This document shows positions 26,154 through 38,521 of a stretch of DNA of 64,000 nucleotides, piece by piece. This DNA comes from Myxococcales bacterium (GTDB taxonomy: Bacteria > Myxococcota_A > UBA9160 > UBA4427). The stretch is taken from the NCBI GenBank assembly GCA_012960035.1, contig DUBZ01000013.1, forward strand, positions 3,228-67,227, written 5' to 3'. Position numbers and translations under genes: made by a program. The notes below the pieces were generated by a model. The model was given only the letters and a program-made list of their open reading frames with translations. It had not been told where the DNA came from and did not search any database. Positions within the stretch are counted from its first letter, which is position 1; each line of letters opens with the position of its first letter.

Positions 26154-26426
26154 GCGTTTTTACGCGAGTATTTTCGCTTTCAAGTCGAGTTGTGTTTTGA
26201 AATTCTGCGGAGCGTTCTGACCCTAGTGCGGTACTTCGCTGTGTGACCTGGATCACTTTTCTCGGCTCATTGGCCGCGGTTTACGGTTGCGATGGGGACG
26301 AAATTTCCGAGTCGCCGTTTGGTTGCCGACGCCCGCATTCACGCGAGTGTTTTCTCCTCACGAGAATTCCAGTTGATCGATCTCGGCCTCTCAAGTCGCT
26401 TCGGCGCCCGGACGAAACGGGCTTTA

Positions 26427-28844
26427 ATGATTGAATCTCCTTCTGACAAAGTTGCGCAAGAAGAACTTCCGATTCTTCCACTTCGTGAGTTCGTTCTTTT
26501 TCCCTATATGGTTCTCCCGCTCTTCGTTTCGCGGCAAAGCTCGATCGCCGCAGTAGAGGACGCGCTTGCGTCAGGCGGGCGGATCTTGCTCGTGGCGCAG
26601 CGCGATCCCGAGACCCAGGAACCAGGGAACGAAGACCTCTACAGCGTTGGCACCATTGCCATGGTGATGCGTAGCCTGCGTATGCCTGATGGTCGCCTGA
26701 AGGTGATGTTCCAGGGGTTGAGCAAGGCCCGTATCGACGCCTTTGTAGATCGCGAGTCGAGTAGTACCTGGGCAAGTGTCTCCTCGATTCCGAGCGACGA
26801 GACAGGCGTCTGGTGCGTCGAGAGCGAAGCACTCGTGCGTGCGGTTCGCACCCGAGTGGAAGAGCTACTGCCGCTTAAGGATTTACCCCCCGAAGTGCTG
26901 TCGATTATGACCAACATCGACGAACCCGGGCGTCTCGCGGACATCGTCGCCACGAATTTGCGTTTGCGACTCACCGAAGCGCAGGAAGTGCTCGAAGTCG
27001 AAGATTCGCTTTCTCGACTTCGCAAAGTCGATGCATTGGTGCGACGCGAGCTCGAAGTCACCACGATGCAGGCCGAAATCCAGCATCAAGCGAAAGAAGA
27101 GATGTCTCGCGGACAGCGCGAAGTCTTTCTCCGCGAACAATTGAGCGCGATCCAGAACGAATTGGGTGAAGTCGATTCGCGTGGTGGTGAAGAGACTGAC
27201 GAATACAGGCACAAGATCGAAGAAGCCGGGCTCGATCCCGAAGCACACGAGGAAGCGCTGAAGCAGCTGCGACGACTCGAGCGGATGCACCCCGACGGGC
27301 CCGAAGCGCAGGTTGCACGCAACTATCTCGACTGGATTGTAGCCCTGCCATGGTCCAATACTTCGCCAGATCAACTCGACCTGATGAACGCGCGTGCGAT
27401 CCTCGACGCCGACCACGCGTACTTGCACGAAGTCAAGGAGCGCATCCTCGAGTTCTTGGGCGTTCGCAAGCTCCGCGCTGACTCGCGGGGTCCGATCCTG
27501 TGTTTCGTAGGCCCGCCCGGCGTTGGAAAGACGTCGCTGGGTCGCTCGATTGCCCGCTCGATGGGACGCGAATTCGTTCGCGTGTCTCTTGGTGGCGTGC
27601 GGGACGAAGCCGAGATCCGCGGTCACCGACGGACATACGTCGGTGCGCTTCCCGGACGGATCATCCAGAGCCTGAAGTCTGCGGGCACGAACAACCCGGT
27701 CTTCATGCTCGACGAACTCGACAAGCTCGGTTCCGACTTCCGCGGCGACCCGTCTTCCGCGCTACTCGAAGTTCTTGATCCAGAGCAGAACTCGAATTTT
27801 GATGACCACTTTTTGAACGTCCCCTTTGATCTCTCGAAGGTGATGTTCATCGCGACCGCCAACACGATGGACACGATCCCAGCGCCGCTGCGGGACCGTA
27901 TGGAAGTGATTCAACTCTCGGGCTACACGCCGGAAGAGAAGTCTTCGATTGCCAACCGGTTCTTGATTCCGCGACAGCTGGCCGAACACGGCTTGCCTGA
28001 GACCAGCATCGAATGGGCGCCGAGTGCGGTCGACAAGATCTGCACGGGGTACACCCACGAAGCCGGTGTCCGTAGCCTCGAACGTCAGGTGGCCCAGGTT
28101 TGCCGCAAGGTTGCGCGCCGCACCGCAGAGGGCAATTCGGACGTCGTCCGCGTGACGTGCCGGAACCTCAAGAACTATCTTGGCATCGCACGCTTCGAAA
28201 GCGAAGTGCACTCGAAGCAAAATCAAATCGGCGTGGCCAATGGCCTTGCGTGGACGGAGGCGGGCGGTGAAGTCCTTACCATCGAAGCGTCCCTGACCAG
28301 AGGTGACGGGTTACTCCTCACGGGGCAGTTGGGCGACGTGATGAAGGAATCGGTGCAGACGGCATTGAGCTATGCCCGCTCGATCTTGTTCGACCTGGGA
28401 GTCGACGATCGCGCGCTGACCGGCAACCAGATTCATGTTCATGTCCCGGCAGGTGCCACGCCAAAGGACGGTCCGTCCGCAGGCGTCACCATGGCGACAA
28501 CGTTGCTCTCTCTCGCGACCCACAACCCGATTCGCGGCGACGTTGCGATGACGGGCGAAGTTACTTTGCGAGGCCGTGTGCTTCCGGTGGGTGGCATTCG
28601 CGAGAAGGCGCTCGCTGCGCTGCGCTGCGGGATCGATACTGTGATCGTTCCGAAGTCGTGCATGGCCGAAGTCGACGAGATTCCGAAGAAACTGAGGCGC
28701 AAGCTCAAGTTCGTTCCGGTCGAGACCATGCGAGAGGTTCTCGACGCGGTACTGTCGCAACCCCTGTCGTGGCGCGACAAAGCAGCGCAGCCCCCGATGG
28801 TGACCCACGCTCCTAGGCCGGTGGCTTCGGTAAAGGGTCGATAG
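26427..28844 (+). CDS. lon: ATP-dependent Lon protease
   Basis: LPILPLR N domain, GPPGVGKTS, RRTYVGALPG, catalytic PKDGPSAG and GGIREK. Confidence 0.97.
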   Translation: MIESPSDKVAQEELPILPLREFVLFPYMVLPLFVSRQSSIAAVEDALASGGRILLVAQRDPETQEPGNEDLYSVGTIAMVMRSLRMPDGRLKVMFQGLSKARIDAFVDRESSSTWASVSSIPSDETGVWCVESEALVRAVRTRVEELLPLKDLPPEVLSIMTNIDEPGRLADIVATNLRLRLTEAQEVLEVEDSLSRLRKVDALVRRELEVTTMQAEIQHQAKEEMSRGQREVFLREQLSAIQNELGEVDSRGGEETDEYRHKIEEAGLDPEAHEEALKQLRRLERMHPDGPEAQVARNYLDWIVALPWSNTSPDQLDLMNARAILDADHAYLHEVKERILEFLGVRKLRADSRGPILCFVGPPGVGKTSLGRSIARSMGREFVRVSLGGVRDEAEIRGHRRTYVGALPGRIIQSLKSAGTNNPVFMLDELDKLGSDFRGDPSSALLEVLDPEQNSNFDDHFLNVPFDLSKVMFIATANTMDTIPAPLRDRMEVIQLSGYTPEEKSSIANRFLIPRQLAEHGLPETSIEWAPSAVDKICTGYTHEAGVRSLERQVAQVCRKVARRTAEGNSDVVRVTCRNLKNYLGIARFESEVHSKQNQIGVANGLAWTEAGGEVLTIEASLTRGDGLLLTGQLGDVMKESVQTALSYARSILFDLGVDDRALTGNQIHVHVPAGATPKDGPSAGVTMATTLLSLATHNPIRGDVAMTGEVTLRGRVLPVGGIREKALAALRCGIDTVIVPKSCMAEVDEIPKKLRRKLKFVPVETMREVLDAVLSQPLSWRDKAAQPPMVTHAPRPVASVKGR

Positions 28845-28906
28845 CCTTTCGTTAGTCCGCCGATCAATCGGCTCGCGAAGCCGATTAGCAAGCTAGACTC
28901 GGCGCG

Positions 28907-29872
28907 ATGACCACCCTGGCAGAGCTTGGCGAGTTCGACCTCATTGCCCGCATCAAGGCGCGGGCAAGTCGCTTGCATAGTCGCGATGTCGTTGTTGGCA
29001 TTGGGGATGATGCCGCGGTTCTTAGGCCGCGTGCGAACGAGGACCTCGTCGTTTCAACCGATGCCCTCGTCGAAGACGTTCACTTCCGTTGGGACAATCA
29101 GTCGCCTGCAAGTCTCGGGCGTCGTGCGCTGCTCGCGAATCTTTCCGATCTCGCCGCAATGGGCGCTCGCCCGGTTGGCTTCACCCTGGCGCTCTCCGCT
29201 CCCACGTCTCTGACGCTTACCCGGATCGACGGAATGCTCGGCGGTTTGCTACGCGAAGCAAAGGCTTACGGGTGTCCCCTGATCGGCGGGAATCTGAGCC
29301 GCGCCAAGCAGACCACGATGGCGATTACCGTGCTGGGGGCTGTCCAGCGGGGGCGCGCTCTACGGCGCGACACTGCACAGCCAGGCGATGCCATCTGCGT
29401 CACCGGCACGCTCGGCGGTGCGGGCTTGGCCCTCCGCAAGAGCGGCGACTCAGGTTCCGCCCTGCGACATCTCCCAAAGGCGCGCGTCGCCGCGGGTCGG
29501 GCCCTCGCACGGTTGAAAAACGCGGGCGCGTGCATCGATATTTCTGACGGGTTTGTGTCCGACCTGGGCCACGTCCTCAAGGCGTCGGGAGTCGGGGCAG
29601 AGATCGATCTCTCTCGCATTCCAACTCCGCGGGCATTCGCTCGCGGTTGTGAACAACTCGGACTTGATGCCACCAAAATCGCGCTTCACGCGGGGGAAGA
29701 CTACGAGCTTCTCTTTACGCTCCGCTCGCTCAACGGAGTACGTCGACCGAGCGAAGCGGCTCTCTCGAAGCGGCTGGGCGTTCAAGTTACGGAAGTGGGG
29801 CGCGTCGAAAAGGCGCGCGGTTTGCGCGGGCTCGGTGCGTCAAGCTCGGCTGCTGGCTTTCGTCACTTCTGA
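28907..29872 (+). CDS. thiL: Thiamine-monophosphate kinase
   Basis: GEFDLI, GIGDDAA, NLSDLAAMGA, DISDG, GEDYEL. Confidence 0.95.
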   Translation: MTTLAELGEFDLIARIKARASRLHSRDVVVGIGDDAAVLRPRANEDLVVSTDALVEDVHFRWDNQSPASLGRRALLANLSDLAAMGARPVGFTLALSAPTSLTLTRIDGMLGGLLREAKAYGCPLIGGNLSRAKQTTMAITVLGAVQRGRALRRDTAQPGDAICVTGTLGGAGLALRKSGDSGSALRHLPKARVAAGRALARLKNAGACIDISDGFVSDLGHVLKASGVGAEIDLSRIPTPRAFARGCEQLGLDATKIALHAGEDYELLFTLRSLNGVRRPSEAALSKRLGVQVTEVGRVEKARGLRGLGASSSAAGFRHF

Positions 29873-29963: not shown

Positions 29964-31250
29964 GTGAGAATCGCTCTGACCCACAAATTCCTTTCGGGAT
30001 CGCTACTCGTAGCGGCGTCTGGCGGGATCCTGCCTTGGGGCTTCCGAACCCTCGGACTCGAGTTTTCCGAGTGGGGATCGATGTTCATTGCACTCGGTGT
30101 CGGCGGTGGGCTCGGCTTTGCTTTGTCGCGAAGTCTGGGTCGCAAGCTCGAGGTGTTGCGCGAGGCGACTGACAGAATTCAAGCGGGTGACTTGACCGTG
30201 CAGTTGAAGGTTTCGGACCGCGAGTTTTTTGCGGACGAGACTGACGAACTCGCCGTTAGCGTGAAGGGCATGTTGAGCCAGCTCAATACGTTCGTACACC
30301 GCGTGCAAGACAACGCAGACTTGGTGACCACTGCCGCACACGACCTGACTCGAGAGATCGAAAACGTGCGCGAAGTCAATGAAGGCATTTCGAACACAGT
30401 CTCTACCGGGACCGAAGGCAATGCCCGAAAGCGAGAGCTTCTCGATCGCGCGACCAAGTTGATTGGACGGATCTCAAGCGACATCGAAGTGAACGCGGGT
30501 CGTGCGCGGGAAGCATTTGGCTTTGCTGCGGAAGCGAACCAGAAGGCAAGCAACGGTGTTGAAGTGTCGGGGCTCGCGATCGACAAGATGAGGGCCGTAT
30601 TCGAGCGCGTTGAAAAAACGGGGCAAATGGTGTTCGACCTCGAAGCCAAGACCGGCCACGTCCACCAGATCACCGAAATCATTACGAGCGTTGCGCACAG
30701 AACGAACTTGCTGTCGCTCAACGCTTCGATCGAAGCCGCACGAGCGGGTGAAGCGGGCCGCGGCTTTTCGGTTGTGGCGGACGAGATTCGCAAGCTCTCG
30801 GAAAGCGCCACGCGTAGCGCAGACGAGATCTCAAAACTGATCAACGAAATTCAGTCGGACACCAGTGAAGTCGCCGACGAAATGCGACAGTCGAGCGAAG
30901 TAATCACGGAAGGTCGCGAGGACGTCAATACGATCGTGGACTCACTCGGTGAGATCAGCATGGCGGTTGGCGAAGCCGCCGCACGTTCCGAAGCGATTTT
31001 TCACGATGCCGACGAGCACGCCATCAGTGCCGAGCGCATGGTGGCCGCGATGAGCGAGCTCAAGGGCAGCACTGAAGAAAGTGACAGTACCCACAGCGAA
31101 GTTGCCCGCATGGCTTCGGGCCAGCTTGGTGCCGTTTCAAAAATGGTGGGTGGGTCACTTGCGCTATCGACCGCCGCCGAAGAATTGCGCGAACTGCTGA
31201 GCCACTACCGAACCGCGGGTGGCGGAAGCGAAGGGGAGGGAGGAGCATGA
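29964..31250 (+). CDS. Methyl-accepting chemotaxis protein without periplasmic domain (DifA-like)
   Basis: Two closely spaced TM segments, HAMP region, [23 protein letters not shown] tip. Confidence 0.92.
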
Positions 31251-31720
31251 GCGAGCTTCCCGTTCCCGATGACAGCGTTTCAGGCAATCGTCTCATGACG
31301 TTTGAGGTGGGCGGCAACGTTTACGGACTACCGATTTCCGAAATTCTCGAAGTGGTGGAGCAGTCGGGTTTTAGCTGCGTCCCGACCCTGCCGCGGGAAT
31401 TGGGTGGCGTGATGAACTGGCACGGCGAAGCGCTGCCGGTGGTGGCGCCGCATTTGTTGCTGGGTGGATCTCCTGTAGTTGCACGCGAGTCGGGAACTCC
31501 GCAGCAGTTTCTCGTCGTGACCGATGGCTTGGATGTTGTCGCCCAGTTGGGATTGCCGATCGATTTTGTCTCTGGGTTGGTTGATGGAGAGCCGGGCCGC
31601 GCGCGGGGCGAAGACGTCGTCGTCGAACGCAGAACGGTGGATGACCGTGTTGTCAGTGTGATCAACCCGCAGCGCCTTGTGGCGCGAGCGGCAAAAATCA
31701 TAGAAGGTGCTGTTGCCTAG
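31247..31720 (+). CDS. cheW: CheW coupling protein (DifC-like)
   Basis: [28 protein letters not shown]. Confidence 0.85.
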
Positions 31721-31747: not shown

Positions 31748-32131
31748 ATGAAAGCTCGAGTTCTAATTGCTGATGACGCTTCTTTCATGCGGCAGATGAT
31801 TCGCGAGATCATCGAGCCCGAAGGTTACGAAGTCGTTGGAGAAGCAACGAATGGAATGGAGGCCGTGGAGCTTTACCTCAAACTGCAGCCCGACCTCGTC
31901 ACGATGGACATCGTGATGCCCAAGCGCAGTGGGATCGAGGCGGTTCGCGGCATTCTTGCCGAAGACCCGCTCGCACAGGTCGTGATGTGCAGTGCGCTCG
32001 GCCAAGAGACGTTGGTCATGGAAGCCCTTCATGCCGGTGCGAAGAACTTCATCGTGAAGCCCTTCAAGCCCGACGCAGTGCTTTCGACCCTCGACCGCCT
32101 TCTTGAAAAAGAAGACATGGCGGGCGAATAG
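31748..32131 (+). CDS. cheY: CheY-like response regulator (DifD-like)
   Basis: IADD, TMDIVMP (phospho-Asp), CSALG, IVKPF. Confidence 0.92.
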   Translation: MKARVLIADDASFMRQMIREIIEPEGYEVVGEATNGMEAVELYLKLQPDLVTMDIVMPKRSGIEAVRGILAEDPLAQVVMCSALGQETLVMEALHAGAKNFIVKPFKPDAVLSTLDRLLEKEDMAGE

Positions 32132-32134
32132 TCA

Positions 32135-33915
32135 GTGGCACTCGATATGGCCAAATACCGGGTCCTCTTCCTCGAAGAGGCCGCAGAACACCTTGCCGAC
32201 ATGGGCAAGGCTCTGCTCGATCTCGAAAAGGACACGGCGTCAGCCGAGTCGATCGACGTGATCTTTCGGATGGCCCACAGCATCAAGTCGATGGCGGCCT
32301 CGGTTGGCTACGACCCGGTGATGGAAGTGTCGCATGCGCTCGAAGACCGCATGGAAACCATTCGCAGTGCTGGCTGTGTTCCGCCCGGCGATTCGTTGAG
32401 CTTGTTGTTCCGGGGGCTCGAAGGCCTCGAACAGATGGTCGCGATCGTCAGCGAAACCGGTGAAGCGCCCCCGGAACGCCCCGATCTCGTTTCGGAACTG
32501 TCGGTGCCCATTGAAGCGACTCCGGTGACTTCAATGTGCGTTGAATCCGAATCAACCCCACCCCCCGAAAGTTTGCCCGAGCCTCCTGACGCTGCTGAAC
32601 TCGACGTTGAACTCGCCGCGGTGATGGCTGCCCTTGAGGCCGAGGCGGGAGCAAAAAAAAAACTCTTGAACTGACTCCGGTCGTCGCTCACGACGATGGG
32701 GCTTTTGCCTCCGGGGCGGGTCAAGAGAACGGCGCCGCCGTAACGGGTCCTGGGCAGAGTCTGCCCGTACCCGCGCCTACCGTCCGCGTTCGCACGCAGA
32801 CGCTCGACAAATTTCTCGGTGCCGTGGGCGAAGTGATTCTCAGCTCGCGGCAGCTACGTGGCGCTGCACAATCGGGTGTGAGCGGTGCCGAACGCGCCGA
32901 GCGCTTTGATCGCGTCGAACGCCGGGTCAACGAGCTCCAGCGACGCGTGCTCGACTTGCGCACGACCCCGCTCTTGCGCGTGATGGAAAATTTGCCCCGG
33001 GTCGCCCGTAAGGTTGCCGAAGCCCAGGGCAAGCGGGTTGACGTTCAGTTGCTCGGTACGGAGCTCGAACTCGATCGCTCGATCCTCGACAGACTCAGCG
33101 AACCCCTGCTCCACATTATTCGCAACGCCGTCGATCACGGGCTCGAAGTGATCGAGGAACGGATTCGCAAGGGGAAACCCGAAGTCGGCCAGGTGGTGAT
33201 CGAGGCGCGACGCGAACGTAATTCGATCGTCATTGAGGTGACCGACGACGGCAAGGGGATCGATCTTGCGGCGGTGCGCACCCGCGCCATCCAAGTGGGT
33301 CTGCTGCACCCGGACCTTGCCGACGATCTGCCAAAAGAAGAAAATCTAAATTTGATCTTTCAGCCGGGTCTCTCGACCGCGGCGCAGTTGAGTGATGTGT
33401 CGGGCCGCGGTGTGGGAATGGATGCCGTCAAAGCGACAGTCGAAGCGCTCGGCGGTTCGGTCAACCTTGCGAGCACCGAAGGACAGGGGACGACGACTCG
33501 ACTGGAAGTCCCGATTACCGCTGCCGTTCAGCGTGTGCTGTTGGTCGAGGTGTCGGGCGAGCGCATCGCGCTGCCGATCGCCAAGGTTGAACGCATTGTC
33601 GAAGTACCCCGGGCTTCGATCGAAGACAGTGGCGGCGAGATGTTTACGCTCGTCGACGACGAGCCCATCTTGGTGATCGATCTCGCAGAGTGCATGCAAA
33701 TGGATCGCACCGAAATGCCCGACCCGGTCCCCCTCGCCGTGACGGACGTGCGCGGTGAAATCGTTGCGCTCAGCGTCAACAAATTTGCCGGACAACAAGA
33801 AGTCTACGTGAAACCCGTGCCCGAACTCCTTGCTGGAGTGAAGGCGCTTGCGGGCATGACGATCCTCGAAGACGGAAGTCCCGTTTTCTTACTCGATCTC
33901 AACCACCTGGTCTAA
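32135..33915 (+). CDS. cheA: CheA histidine kinase (DifE-like) in two frames joined by a -1 shift at A10 (32653-32662)
   Basis: Frame 0 (32135-32674): Hpt domain FRMAHSIKSMA. Frame -1: TVRVRTQTLDKFLGAVGE dimerisation, HIIRNAVDHG, DDGKG, SGRGVGMD, CheW-like P5. Confidence 0.9.
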
Positions 33916-33928
33916 GTCGGAGTCCCGT

Positions 33929-34525
33929 GTGACGGCCGCCATGGAAGAACAGATCGACCGCTTGAGCGAACTCGCCAATATTGGTGCGGGCCACGCTGCG
34001 GGTGCGTTCTCTCTTCTTACCGGTCATACGATCAGGATGGCTGTGCCGCGCGTTCGATTGACCTCTGCCTTGACCGCAAATGAGCCGGCACCGGACGACC
34101 CGCTCGAATTCGTGAGCCTGGCGACTGCCGACCGCGGTTGGGAGTCAGGAGTCATCTTTGAGTTCGATGGTTGCTTGCACGCGATTCTCGCGATTCTTTT
34201 TCGGCGCCCAATGTGTGACGCGGTGGTGCGCAATTTGACTGGGCAGTCAGAAGGTTTCTTGCCTCCGGAAACGATCGAGAGTGCGTTGATGGAATTGGGC
34301 AATGTTCTTGCGTCCCACGTTGCGTCCGCGATCGCCGACACCCTCGGTGCACGGCTCTTGCCTTCGATCCCCATGCTTTCGGTTCACGATGCAATTCCGC
34401 AACTCGAAGCGTTGGCGGCGACGCATCCTGGTGCGGGCCAAGTCTGGATCGAAAGCGAGTTGCTCGATGGCGACGGCAATCTCGGCGGACTGGTTGTGAT
34501 GATCCCGGACCGTGAGACGGCCTGA
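33929..34525 (+). CDS. cheC: CheC-family phosphatase (DifG-like)
   Basis: Two ExxN motifs: ELANIGAG and ELGNVLAS. Confidence 0.85.
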   Translation: MTAAMEEQIDRLSELANIGAGHAAGAFSLLTGHTIRMAVPRVRLTSALTANEPAPDDPLEFVSLATADRGWESGVIFEFDGCLHAILAILFRRPMCDAVVRNLTGQSEGFLPPETIESALMELGNVLASHVASAIADTLGARLLPSIPMLSVHDAIPQLEALAATHPGAGQVWIESELLDGDGNLGGLVVMIPDRETA

Positions 34526-34620
34526 ACTCCGCGCGATCGCTCGGCCCAATCTCCCGGGGCCGCAACGGCAGCCGCGATCTGTATTTGATACCGTGCATCC
34601 CCTTCGGCGAAGGGTGTGAG

Positions 34621-35370
34621 ATGGAACGCGATCGGATCAGGCAACTTCTCGAAAAAGTGAAAGACGGCGACGTCGACATCGACGGTGCGATGAAGTCGCT
34701 GTCGAGCCTGCCGTTTATCGACACGCCGAACGCTCGGGTCGATACCCAGCGTTCGTTGCGGATGGGGATCCCCGAAGTTGTGTACGGACCGGGCAAGACG
34801 CCGGGACAAATCGTCGAAGTCGTCACAGCGCTTCGCGAAGCTGAACAAAGCGTGCTCGTAACAAGGGTCGAACCGTCCGCAGCACAAGATGTTTTACAGG
34901 CGTTTCCAGCTGGCGAGTACGACGAAGTCGCACGCACGCTCTGGTTCGGCCCTGCCGAAGTCCCTGTGATTGGAAAGGGCACGATCATGATCGTGTGCGC
35001 AGGGACGAGTGACCTGCCCGTCGCCGCTGAAGCATCGGCGGTTGCTCGCCGCTTCGGCAATAAGGTCGAGATGCTGATCGACGTGGGTGTTGCGGGTATT
35101 CATCGCTTGCTTGCGTCCCACGACGTTTTGCAGAACGCGCGGGTCTTGATTGTCATCGCCGGAATGGAAGGCGCGCTGCCGTCCGTCGTGGGAGGGCTTG
35201 TCGACAAGCCCGTCATCGCCGTGCCGACGAGCGTGGGGTACGGCGCCTCATTCGGAGGTGTCACTGCGTTGCTCGGCATGTTGACCAGTTGCGCGTCCAA
35301 TGTGACGGTGGTCAATATTGATAACGGGTATGGCGCCGCGTATGTCGCGACGCTCATCAACCGGCTCTAA
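34621..35370 (+). CDS. larB: Nickel pincer cofactor biosynthesis protein LarB
   Basis: AGTSDLPVA, DVGVAGIHRL, AGMEGALPS, VPTSVGYG, VVNIDNG. Confidence 0.93.
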   Translation: MERDRIRQLLEKVKDGDVDIDGAMKSLSSLPFIDTPNARVDTQRSLRMGIPEVVYGPGKTPGQIVEVVTALREAEQSVLVTRVEPSAAQDVLQAFPAGEYDEVARTLWFGPAEVPVIGKGTIMIVCAGTSDLPVAAEASAVARRFGNKVEMLIDVGVAGIHRLLASHDVLQNARVLIVIAGMEGALPSVVGGLVDKPVIAVPTSVGYGASFGGVTALLGMLTSCASNVTVVNIDNGYGAAYVATLINRL

Positions 35371-35380
35371 GGCTGTATCC

Positions 35381-36760
35381 GTGACCGCAAGGCCAAAGTC
35401 TCCGCGCAAGGCAAGACGAACGTCCGCCCCTAGAACGATTGCGGCTGGGCGGGTTCTTCATCTTGATTGTTTCTCCGGTATTTCGGGGAACATGTTTCTC
35501 GGCGCGCTGCTCGACCTCGGGCTTTCACGCAAAGAACTCGACGCAGAACTTGCGGGCCTTGGCGTCGACTACAAACTGAAGGTGTCGAAGGTCGCGCGAG
35601 GTGCGATTGCCGCGAAGTATGTGGACGTGTTGATGCCCGGCGCAAAGCGAGCGTCGAAAAAGGCACCTGCGAAAAAGAAGAAGGCCGCGAGTAGGGCGCA
35701 CACTGACCACCATCCGCACACGCGCGATGATCACACCCACGTCCATCCCCATCCCCACACGCATCCCCATGCGCACCCCCACGCCCAGCACAGCCACGGC
35801 AAGAGCTACAAACAGGTACGCGCGATCGTCGAAAAGGCGAAGCTGGCGGCAGCCGTTCGAGAGCGCGCGCTTGCGATCTTTGAAGGGCTCGCCGTTGCAG
35901 AAGGCAAGGTTCACGGTGTCGCCCCAGACGATGTCCACTTTCATGAAGTCGGCGCCATCGACGCGATCATCGACGTCACCGGGGCGGCGGTTGGCCTGCA
36001 CCTGCTCGGGGTGGAACGCGTGACATCGTCGCCGGTTGCACTCGGACACGGCACGGTGCAAACCGAACACGGACTTCTCCCGCTCCCGGCGCCTGCCACG
36101 ATGGAACTTCTGCGCGGGATGCCCACGGTCCCGGCCCACGTCGCCTGGGAAACTGTGACGCCGACTGGCGCGGCAATCCTTCGCAACATCGTCGACGAAT
36201 TTTCGCCGCTTCCCGCGATGACGATCGACAAGATCGGCCATGGCGCAGGCAACGACCGCGCAGGCGAGATGCCCAACATTTTGCGCGCGGTGCTGGGTTC
36301 CACCGGGCAAACGTCGTCAGATCGGATTAGCTGCCTCGAATGCAATCTTGACGACTTCAACCCCGAACACTTCGACTACCTGATGGAGCGTTTGTTCGAC
36401 GAGGGTGCCCTCGACGTTTCCTTGCAAAATATCCAGATGAAGAAGAACCGCCCTGGCTTCCTGGTGCGGGTCCTTGCACGCCCTGACCAACGGGTGCGCT
36501 TGTCTCAAGTGTTGATGAGCGAGTCGACAACGCTGGGGGTGCGAACAACCGATTGGGAGCGAGTGGTTCTGCCGCGGACCCGCCGCAAGGTTGCGACGGA
36601 CTACGGCCGCATCGCGGTGAAGGTCACGGAGACTCCCGACGGTCGGCTCGACTATTCTGCGGAATACGACGATTGCAAGCGAGCCGCGCGCAAGCACAAG
36701 GTTGCGTTGCGCGATGTGGTACGGGCTGCAGAACGGGCTGCCGAGAAGAACGCCGGTTAA
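35381..36760 (+). CDS. larC: Nickel insertase LarC with His-rich region
   Basis: DCFSGISGNMFLGAL, His-rich tract, VHFHEVGAIDAIID, TPTGAA, ECNLDD, MKKNRPG, EYDD. Confidence 0.93.
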   Translation: MTARPKSPRKARRTSAPRTIAAGRVLHLDCFSGISGNMFLGALLDLGLSRKELDAELAGLGVDYKLKVSKVARGAIAAKYVDVLMPGAKRASKKAPAKKKKAASRAHTDHHPHTRDDHTHVHPHPHTHPHAHPHAQHSHGKSYKQVRAIVEKAKLAAAVRERALAIFEGLAVAEGKVHGVAPDDVHFHEVGAIDAIIDVTGAAVGLHLLGVERVTSSPVALGHGTVQTEHGLLPLPAPATMELLRGMPTVPAHVAWETVTPTGAAILRNIVDEFSPLPAMTIDKIGHGAGNDRAGEMPNILRAVLGSTGQTSSDRISCLECNLDDFNPEHFDYLMERLFDEGALDVSLQNIQMKKNRPGFLVRVLARPDQRVRLSQVLMSESTTLGVRTTDWERVVLPRTRRKVATDYGRIAVKVTETPDGRLDYSAEYDDCKRAARKHKVALRDVVRAAERAAEKNAG

Positions 36761-36833: not shown

Positions 36834-36877
36834 AAAACTTGCCACAAGTTCCGTTCAGAACGGAACGAGCAACGGAC

Positions 36878-38521
<1,644 letters not shown>

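Follow-up and report, generated by a model that had tools for sequence, protein, structure and literature searches.

Does a chemosensory kinase gene that changes reading frame at a run of ten adenines encode two independent proteins, a kinase that is switched by mutation, a sequencing error, or two products of a single recoded gene? The gene in question is a cheA of a Myxococcales bacterium (GTDB lineage Myxococcota_A; UBA9160; UBA4427), located in a stretch of 64,000 nucleotides (nt) that was analysed as a whole and is called the window below (GenBank assembly GCA_012960035.1, contig DUBZ01000013.1, positions 3,228 to 67,227 of the forward strand; all coordinates are those of the window). A sequence-only reading of the window had proposed a programmed shift on the adenine run that would give a free histidine phosphotransfer (Hpt) protein plus the full-length kinase. 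Having followed the gene through a whole taxonomic class, we consider it probable, at about 0.82, that a programmed and evolutionarily maintained -1 transition would generate both proteins from one gene; the proposal is supported by 142 of 171 orthologous loci from 54 genera, by the missing conserved start of the kinase part, and by relatives in which the arrangement is mirrored in frame.

One cheA gene in two reading frames

The elements that define the break are the following:

32135-32674, + strand: frame-0 open reading frame (ORF) encoding the Hpt domain (P1) and a linker of about 70 amino acids (aa); GTG start, 179 aa, C-terminus KKKLLN
32635-32637, + strand: TGA that shuts the -1 frame upstream and sets the 5' limit for any shift
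32653-32662, + strand: slippery run of ten adenines (A10), read in frame 0 as A AAA AAA AAA; the proposed -1 transition site
32672-32674, + strand: frame-0 stop TGA, 9 nt past A10; the 3' limit of the shift
32638-33915, + strand: open -1 frame of 425 codons, with linker, P3, P4 and P5

At its 3' end frame 0 reads GCA AAA AAA AAA CTC TTG AAC TGA. Pfam places the Hpt domain at residues 8-77 of the frame-0 product (E 7.8e-15), where H48, within the motif AHSIKS, is the phospho-accepting histidine. The -1 frame contains H-kinase_dim (P3, residues 48-106 of that frame, nt 32779-32955), HATPase_c (P4, residues 155-294) and a CheW-like domain (P5, residues 300-424), in the same order as in CheA. No P2 family was matched by Pfam in the cheA of the window, and the NCBIfam CheA models match its kinase, yet score under their equivalog cut-offs. 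The two frames overlap by 37 nt, which enclose A10, and a -1 shift is expected to join them into a product of 593 aa. The earliest ATG, GTG or TTG of the -1 frame is a GTG at 32824, which already lies inside P3. On each of these points (the frame-0 ORF, A10, the upstream TGA and the extent of the -1 frame; the lack of a -1-frame start before the dimerisation domain; Hpt in frame 0, kinase and P5 in the -1 frame, and no evident P2) the earlier description was borne out by the sequence, the ORF table with its translations, and Pfam.

Under standard decoding, translation would stop three codons past A10 and release the 179-aa protein as free Hpt (P1), while a fraction of expression events would enter the -1 frame on A10 and continue through P3-P4-P5 to form the 593-aa CheA. 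Within its genome the run is exceptional. The source assembly is a 5.5 Mb draft of 162 contigs with 59 % G+C, in which A/T homopolymers of 7, 8, 9 and 10 occur 234, 38, 3 and 1 times, so that A10 is the sole longest one; the three A/T runs of nine at other sites lie outside long ORFs and are associated with no frame break. Lysine is encoded mainly by AAG in the genes of the window (79 AAG vs 29 AAA), and the genome carries tRNA-Lys(UUU) alongside tRNA-Lys(CUU). An identical A10 is present in another species, whose genome is 97 % identical, and two contigs assembled from Illumina RNA libraries (Logan) of different studies span A10 gap-free and without any indel, with the qualification that assembly drops minor variants and that such libraries may include DNA. 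Given these A10 contigs, slipped transcripts are not the majority.

The frame break across the class

The survey extended over the whole taxonomic class, with 13 families, 11 of which had an evaluable locus. A first pass covered 31 related genomes, in which tblastn searches of the retrieved loci with the two parts, Hpt and kinase, placed the kinase in the -1 frame in 15 of the 18 loci holding both parts, each with an A-run in the overlap. The family step gave a match in 57 of 68 genomes, only two of which had a full-length single-frame match to a fused relative; the order step gave a match in 161 of 193 genomes at E<=1e-90 and added 84 further regions, and the sister order of the class was matched in 30 of 32 genomes. 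Duplicates were left out, as were five loci cut by contig ends, L012 and L015 (which have no Hpt part), L198 (identical to L197) and L265 (a probable paralogue), and about 13 weaker-scoring matches of the order stayed outside the count, giving a final set of 171 loci. The identity of L198 and L197 holds over the compared part; the former derives from a genome of family f7 (G103:C31) and the latter from family f9 (G115:C78), so L198 is probably a mis-binned contig.

Among the 171 loci, 142 require a -1 shift and 3 a +1 shift; the other 26 are in frame, of which 5 have an A-run and 21 have none. The -1 loci represent 54 genera and 10 of the 11 families with an evaluable locus, and the 145 shifted loci together represent 56 genera. 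A run of A7 to A11 lies inside the frame overlap in every one of the 145, with lengths distributed as A7 in 71, A8 in 17, A9 in 23, A10 in 33 and A11 in one; hence 57 loci carry A9 or longer and 88 carry only A7-A8. The 3' phase of the run is constant in the -1 loci (..A AAA AAA|N, i.e. A_AAA_AAA in frame), and the variation from A7 to A10 arises by substitutions at the 5' edge that keep the frame. At their smallest, the distances are 6 nt between the opening of the kinase frame and the 5' edge of the run, and 5 nt between the 3' edge of the run and the end of the frame-0 stop; because the frame overlap can be this narrow, the shift must fall on the run. Past the run, frame 0 terminates after a median of 15 nt, counted to the last base of the stop codon, and within 15 nt in 76 of the 145 shifted loci. 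Both halves stay intact ORFs down to about 43-60 % identity. The frame break does not extend to the CheA paralogues of these genomes, which have unbroken ORFs of 650-1000 aa. An alignment of orthologues, which had been put forward as a check on the proposed frameshift, thus recovered both a conserved A-run and a conserved frame break.

Two groups of loci deviate in detail. In L174 and L184 (genus g50) and L181 (g61), all of family f9, the shift is +1 (or -2) and frame 0 reads CAA AAA AAG GCC TGA; -2 ribosomal slippage or the loss of one A from the transcript are both possible there. With a mean z of -5.4, the 3' hairpin of the two g50 loci, about 5 nt past the run, is stronger than that of any other genus. 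In the sister-order family f13 (L247-L263, L266), only about 45 nt separate the run from the start of P3, and frame 0 does not terminate until 36-87 nt past the run; the short product would carry an out-of-frame tail of 12-29 aa that overlaps the start of P3.

In-frame relatives and the evolution of the site

The five in-frame loci with A8 or A10 are informative because in each the -1 frame ends at a TGA after 2-5 codons (5/5), while their +1 frame is open for 43-76 codons in four of the five. With a -1 stop at this place, either configuration is expected to lead to two products: these loci would mirror the window, with the full kinase as the standard product and the short Hpt protein arising from a -1 event. 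Where an in-frame locus has no run, its linker also has no KK(K). Since such linkers do without these lysines, and lysine is mostly encoded by AAG, the A-run is not kept for the residues it encodes.

A FastTree tree was built from Hpt plus P3-P4, in which many forks are weakly supported; on this tree at least 16 state changes are required. Most of the fused genes without a run are isolated tips nested among recoded loci, a pattern suggestive of secondary fusion on repeated occasions. A 301-genome sample of the phylum yielded no outgroup orthologue, its 45 genomes matched at E<=1e-85 all falling within the class, and a search with the kinase part over wider genome contigs returned only distant CheA of other phyla at 30-40 % identity. 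Closely related loci can differ in state: genus g55 comprises A10 in frame (L143, L145, L150, L175), one A9 that needs -1, and one fused gene without a run (L213, L148). Furthermore, L017 has A8 in frame beside A7 relatives.

RNA structure around the run

Three RNA elements of the window were considered as possible stimulators:

32647-32651, + strand: GGGAG, Shine-Dalgarno-like, 1 nt 5' of A10, of doubtful role
32663-32727, + strand: predicted branched structure directly 3' of A10 (-40 kcal/mol, z -4.38, 0 of 200 shuffles as good)
32680-32697, + strand: inner hairpin GUCGUCG-CUCA-CGACGAU, 18 nt 3' of A10

Compared with dinucleotide shuffles, the 50 nt 3' of the run at the orthologous loci are predicted to fold with a mean z of -1.18, 26 % of them below -2, vs a mean z of -0.17 for the equally long 5' flank and -0.21 for control windows from the kinase coding sequence (435 windows). 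Predicted 3' structure, which the sequence-only reading had named among the known drivers of -1 frameshifting, is enriched across the loci and strong in the window itself. The closing stem of the window structure (CUCUUGA/UCAAGAG) occurs only in the window lineage and its 97 % relative, and all six loci of the window's genus have a hairpin at the position of 32680-32697. No Rfam family matched within 32400-33000.

Elsewhere in the class the structures take other forms. The largest genus, g14 (28 loci), has a 9-bp hairpin 13 nt from its A7, with 97.2 % of cells paired and two compensatory pairs, and its covariation score was reached by 0 of 500 shuffles. In several other genera a different hairpin, frequently of high stability, stands 5-7 nt from the run. 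Spacers of 12-13 nt separate run and hairpin in g14, g24 and g36; in the window the value is 0 or 18 nt. An automated scan for the best hairpin gave spacers spread over 0-24 nt, since weak outer pairs lengthen the stems, and was used only for clear hairpins. In g14, g24 and g36 (e.g. L125, L207 and L164), the hairpin begins 1-2 nt past the frame-0 stop, where termination, transcript protection or long-spacer stimulation are candidate roles.

Structure and run length are related. Genera with A7-A8 (n=30) have a lower 3' minimum free energy (MFE) than those with A9-A11 (n=24), with -24.3 vs -18.2 (Mann-Whitney p 3e-4), and a lower z, with -1.45 vs -0.71 (p 0.028).

On the 5' side, a Shine-Dalgarno-like frameshift stimulator would stand about 10-14 nt from the slippery site. 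The GAGG (32636-32639) and GGGAG motifs that the sequence-only reading had pointed out are present upstream of A10, but a stimulatory role for them is not supported: G-rich motifs upstream of the run are confined to some genera, the GGGAG is not conserved outside the genus of the window, and it stands only 1 nt from the run. An upstream hairpin as a stimulator of slippage is an idea from work on insertion-sequence (IS) elements; as a general stimulator of polymerase slippage at this site it was rejected, with 5' structure at background.

Ribosome or RNA polymerase

Two routes could bring expression into the -1 frame, RNA polymerase inserting one untemplated A (A10 to A11) or a tandem -1 slippage of two tRNA-Lys on A_AAA_AAA, and both would yield the identical 593-aa protein. 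Our reading is that of a dual system as documented for dnaX, in which the ribosome together with a hairpin would act at A7-A8 and the polymerase would take a growing share at A9-A11. Ribosomal -1 frameshifting appears the more likely route in relatives that combine A7-A8 with a strong 3' hairpin. For the A10 of the window, we give even odds to polymerase slippage being the larger contributor. The hallmark of polymerase slippage, about nine or more A/T, is present in A10, and the A9-A11 runs of the class go far beyond ribosomal need and are extreme for genomes of this G+C content. According to the Atkins review, runs of nine A/T slip efficiently in RNA polymerase in vivo, mostly by adding A's.

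Somewhat less probable, although a serious contender, is that ribosomal -1 frameshifting at A_AAA_AAA with the 3' structure is the main route in the window genome too and that the polymerase plays a minor part. The minimal run is the exact in-phase heptamer, A7 being the commonest length, structure is enriched 3' and not 5' of the run, with a z of -4.38 for the window's 3' region, and tRNA-Lys(UUU) is present while the RNA contigs show A10. The direction of the shift is also nearly uniform (142 loci at -1 vs 3 at +1), which Antonov et al. (2013) take as a sign of ribosomal frameshifting, shifts in both directions being their criterion for transcriptional slippage. Yet polymerase slippage mostly inserts A's, so that a uniform -1 direction fits the polymerase as well, and three loci need the opposite direction. 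Furthermore, A10 exceeds ribosomal need by three bases and is the longest A/T run in a genome of 59 % G+C, 3' structure is weaker beside long runs, and A/T runs of nine or more slip efficiently in RNA polymerase, as reported in the review and for the A11 of tssM. The remaining share of our expectation for the window falls to an even mix of the two routes or to some other route.

Alternative explanations

The locus might not be recoded at all. It could encode a bipartite CheA, in which translation yields the Hpt protein separately from the P3-P5 core and the core phosphorylates free P1 in trans. In Berry et al. (2023), an Hpt-less CheA with a separate Hpt gene in the same operon is read as bipartite, liberated P1 is cited as functional, and the CheA3/CheA4 pair of Rhodobacteraceae is an example of such function-sharing. 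What makes this explanation improbable here is the core itself, whose first possible start in the window lies inside the P3 dimerisation helix. In 77 of the 145 shifted loci the kinase frame contains no ATG, GTG or TTG over the interval that opens 60 nt upstream of the run and closes at P3, no start position is conserved, and the kinase frame is open back to the run in every locus. Separate translation would also leave the conserved A-run and the mirrored in-frame variants unexplained. Still less probable is a phase-variable contingency locus, a possibility raised by the sequence-only reading, in which replication slippage would alter the length of the run in DNA and turn the kinase ON or OFF in subpopulations. 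Runs of A7-A11 are mutable in DNA, and g55 with its A9 (-1) and A10 (in frame) as well as L017 with its in-frame A8 show that toggles have occurred. They are confined to these two cases, however, and elsewhere the length changes by 5'-edge substitution; random switching should fill both OFF frames and often the ON frame, whereas 142 of the 150 loci with an A-run share the same -1 state and only three are +1, and independent DNA and RNA-library assemblies of the window lineage are all A10. A homopolymer miscall or a recently broken pseudogene has a negligible chance of being the explanation, even though the window comes from a 162-contig draft and homopolymers are a classic source of error: the same break recurs in 145 loci of 56 genera, mostly in fragmented assemblies of many contigs, with both halves intact down to the identities given above and Illumina RNA contigs reading A10 without gaps. 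Moreover, a nearby frame-0 stop is the rule, and in-frame relatives keep a stop in the -1 frame.

Several observations weigh against a programmed and maintained -1 transition. The A10 RNA contigs agree with slippage in no transcripts or only in a minority of them, and 21 of the 171 orthologues have no run, so two products are dispensable. Free P1 can be phosphorylated in trans (cited in Berry et al. 2023), so a bipartite system is biochemically viable. There is no conserved upstream stimulator. The usual spacing of 3' stimulators of -1 frameshifting is about 5-9 nt; here the spacing of the 3' structure is variable (0-18 nt), and the best-supported hairpin, that of g14, is at 13 nt, beyond the usual distance. 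The lower MFE beside short runs may in part reflect G+C composition, and the loci are kin and not independent, so the p-values for structure and the other statistics are overstated. A maintained -1 transition nonetheless remains the reading that we prefer, and we infer from it that both products are made, in some ratio, and that free P1 acts as a trans-phosphorylated carrier or sink.

Comparison with known systems

The closest parallel is dnaX (products tau and gamma), for which the literature describes a -1 frameshift at A_AAA_AAG in E. coli, transcriptional slippage at A9 in Thermus thermophilus, and 'reversed' genes that make the long product by the shift. As in dnaX, a short and a long product would share their N-terminus, with an A-rich slippery site and a close stop in one frame, and orthologues occur in either configuration, apparently with a ribosomal or a polymerase route. 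The layout of the window corresponds to the 'reversed' dnaX of the Atkins review, and that of the in-frame A-run loci to the classical layout of E. coli. The differences are that the product is a chemosensory histidine kinase and not a clamp-loader subunit, that the heptamer is A_AAA_AAA and not A_AAA_AAG, and that the cheA site has no conserved 5' Shine-Dalgarno-like stimulator, while its 3' structures vary by genus and distance.

A second parallel is tssM of Citrobacter rodentium and Yersinia pseudotuberculosis, where a poly-A tract (A11) also lies just ahead of a premature stop; A's added by the polymerase restore the frame, and truncated and full-length proteins are both made and needed, with their ratio mattering. 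Unlike the cheA site, which is class-wide, often A7 and accompanied by 3' structure, the tssM tract is described with no nearby RNA signals and in few species.

Among chemosensory systems, the predicted products resemble the bipartite CheA of Berry et al. (2023) and the CheA3/CheA4 of Cereibacter sphaeroides in that P1, as a domain separate from the P3-P4-P5 core, is open to phosphorylation in trans. In contrast to these, which are read as pairs of independently translated genes, the core here has no start of its own, the frames overlap on the run, and a fused CheA is predicted. Berry et al. (2023) do not mention frameshifting, and some published 'bipartite' CheAs may be cases of this recoding.

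E. coli provides another precedent for two proteins from one cheA, the long and short forms CheA-L and CheA-S, which arise by alternative initiation, the short form having no P1. In both cases the two products differ in P1; at our site the short form would be P1 alone, made by termination past a slippery run.

No report of recoding at this CheA site was found in the literature, although the supplementary lists of Antonov et al. (2013) and Berry et al. (2023), which lay outside the search, might list such a cluster; nor did the literature searched yield a report of recoding in any chemosensory or two-component kinase. The words 'CheA' and 'chemotaxis' are absent from 300,000 characters of the Atkins et al. 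(2016) review and from the main text of Antonov et al. (2013). The only item found on frameshifting in CheA is a +1 candidate cassette in E. coli cheA that was tested with a reporter and is unrelated. We rate the cheA site as a new and unusually widely conserved case of cellular recoding that would work like dnaX and tssM.

Functional significance

Why would a kinase without P2 be produced together with an excess of free P1? The free domain could act as a mobile carrier of phosphate to CheY or as a sink, and Berry et al. (2023) note that over-expression of Hpt can compensate for the absence of P2. Another possibility is that the shift serves only to keep CheA low relative to CheW and CheY. A bolder and rather doubtful idea is that the A-run is a tunable stoichiometry device fixing the ratio of free P1, as a diffusible carrier between kinase core and CheY or as a sink, to array-bound CheA, with the two routes (A7 plus hairpin for the ribosome, or A9-A11 with little structure for the polymerase) interchangeable over evolution and with some lineages inverting which of the products needs the slip.

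Recoding on A-runs is already known from dnaX, from the transposases of insertion sequences and from tssM. If our reading is true, this cheA would add a cellular, non-mobile family with a conservation among the broadest for bacterial frameshifting (a whole class, 56 genera), and a regulated pool of free P1 beside full-length CheA would be predicted. The natural series from A7 to A11, with and without hairpins and in both configurations, also offers a view of how ribosomal and transcriptional slippage replace each other. In practical terms, gene callers will split or truncate this cheA in every genome of the class, and 'Hpt-less' or 'bipartite' CheA genes in genomic surveys may be mis-annotated.

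Neighbouring genes

The cheA gene is co-located with further chemosensory genes, those for a methyl-accepting chemotaxis protein (MCP), CheW and CheY directly upstream and that for a CheC/CheX-type phosphatase downstream:

29964-31250, + strand: MCP with HAMP
31247-31720, + strand: CheW
31748-32131, + strand: CheY
33929-34525, + strand: CheC/CheX-type phosphatase

The order MCP-CheW-CheY-CheA-CheC resembles the dif order of Myxococcus xanthus without difB; the Dif label given in the sequence-only reading is tentative.

Immediately beyond the chemosensory cluster, an AIR-carboxylase-like gene and a gene of a nickel-insertion family, LarB/LarC-like by Pfam, occupy 34585-36760. A 420-aa ORF at 36839-38101 (+ strand), which has no Pfam match at E<=1e-4, overlaps a 547-aa ORF on the opposite strand (36878-38521). 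Upstream of the cluster, at 26292-29872, lie a Lon protease gene and an AIR-synthase-related gene.

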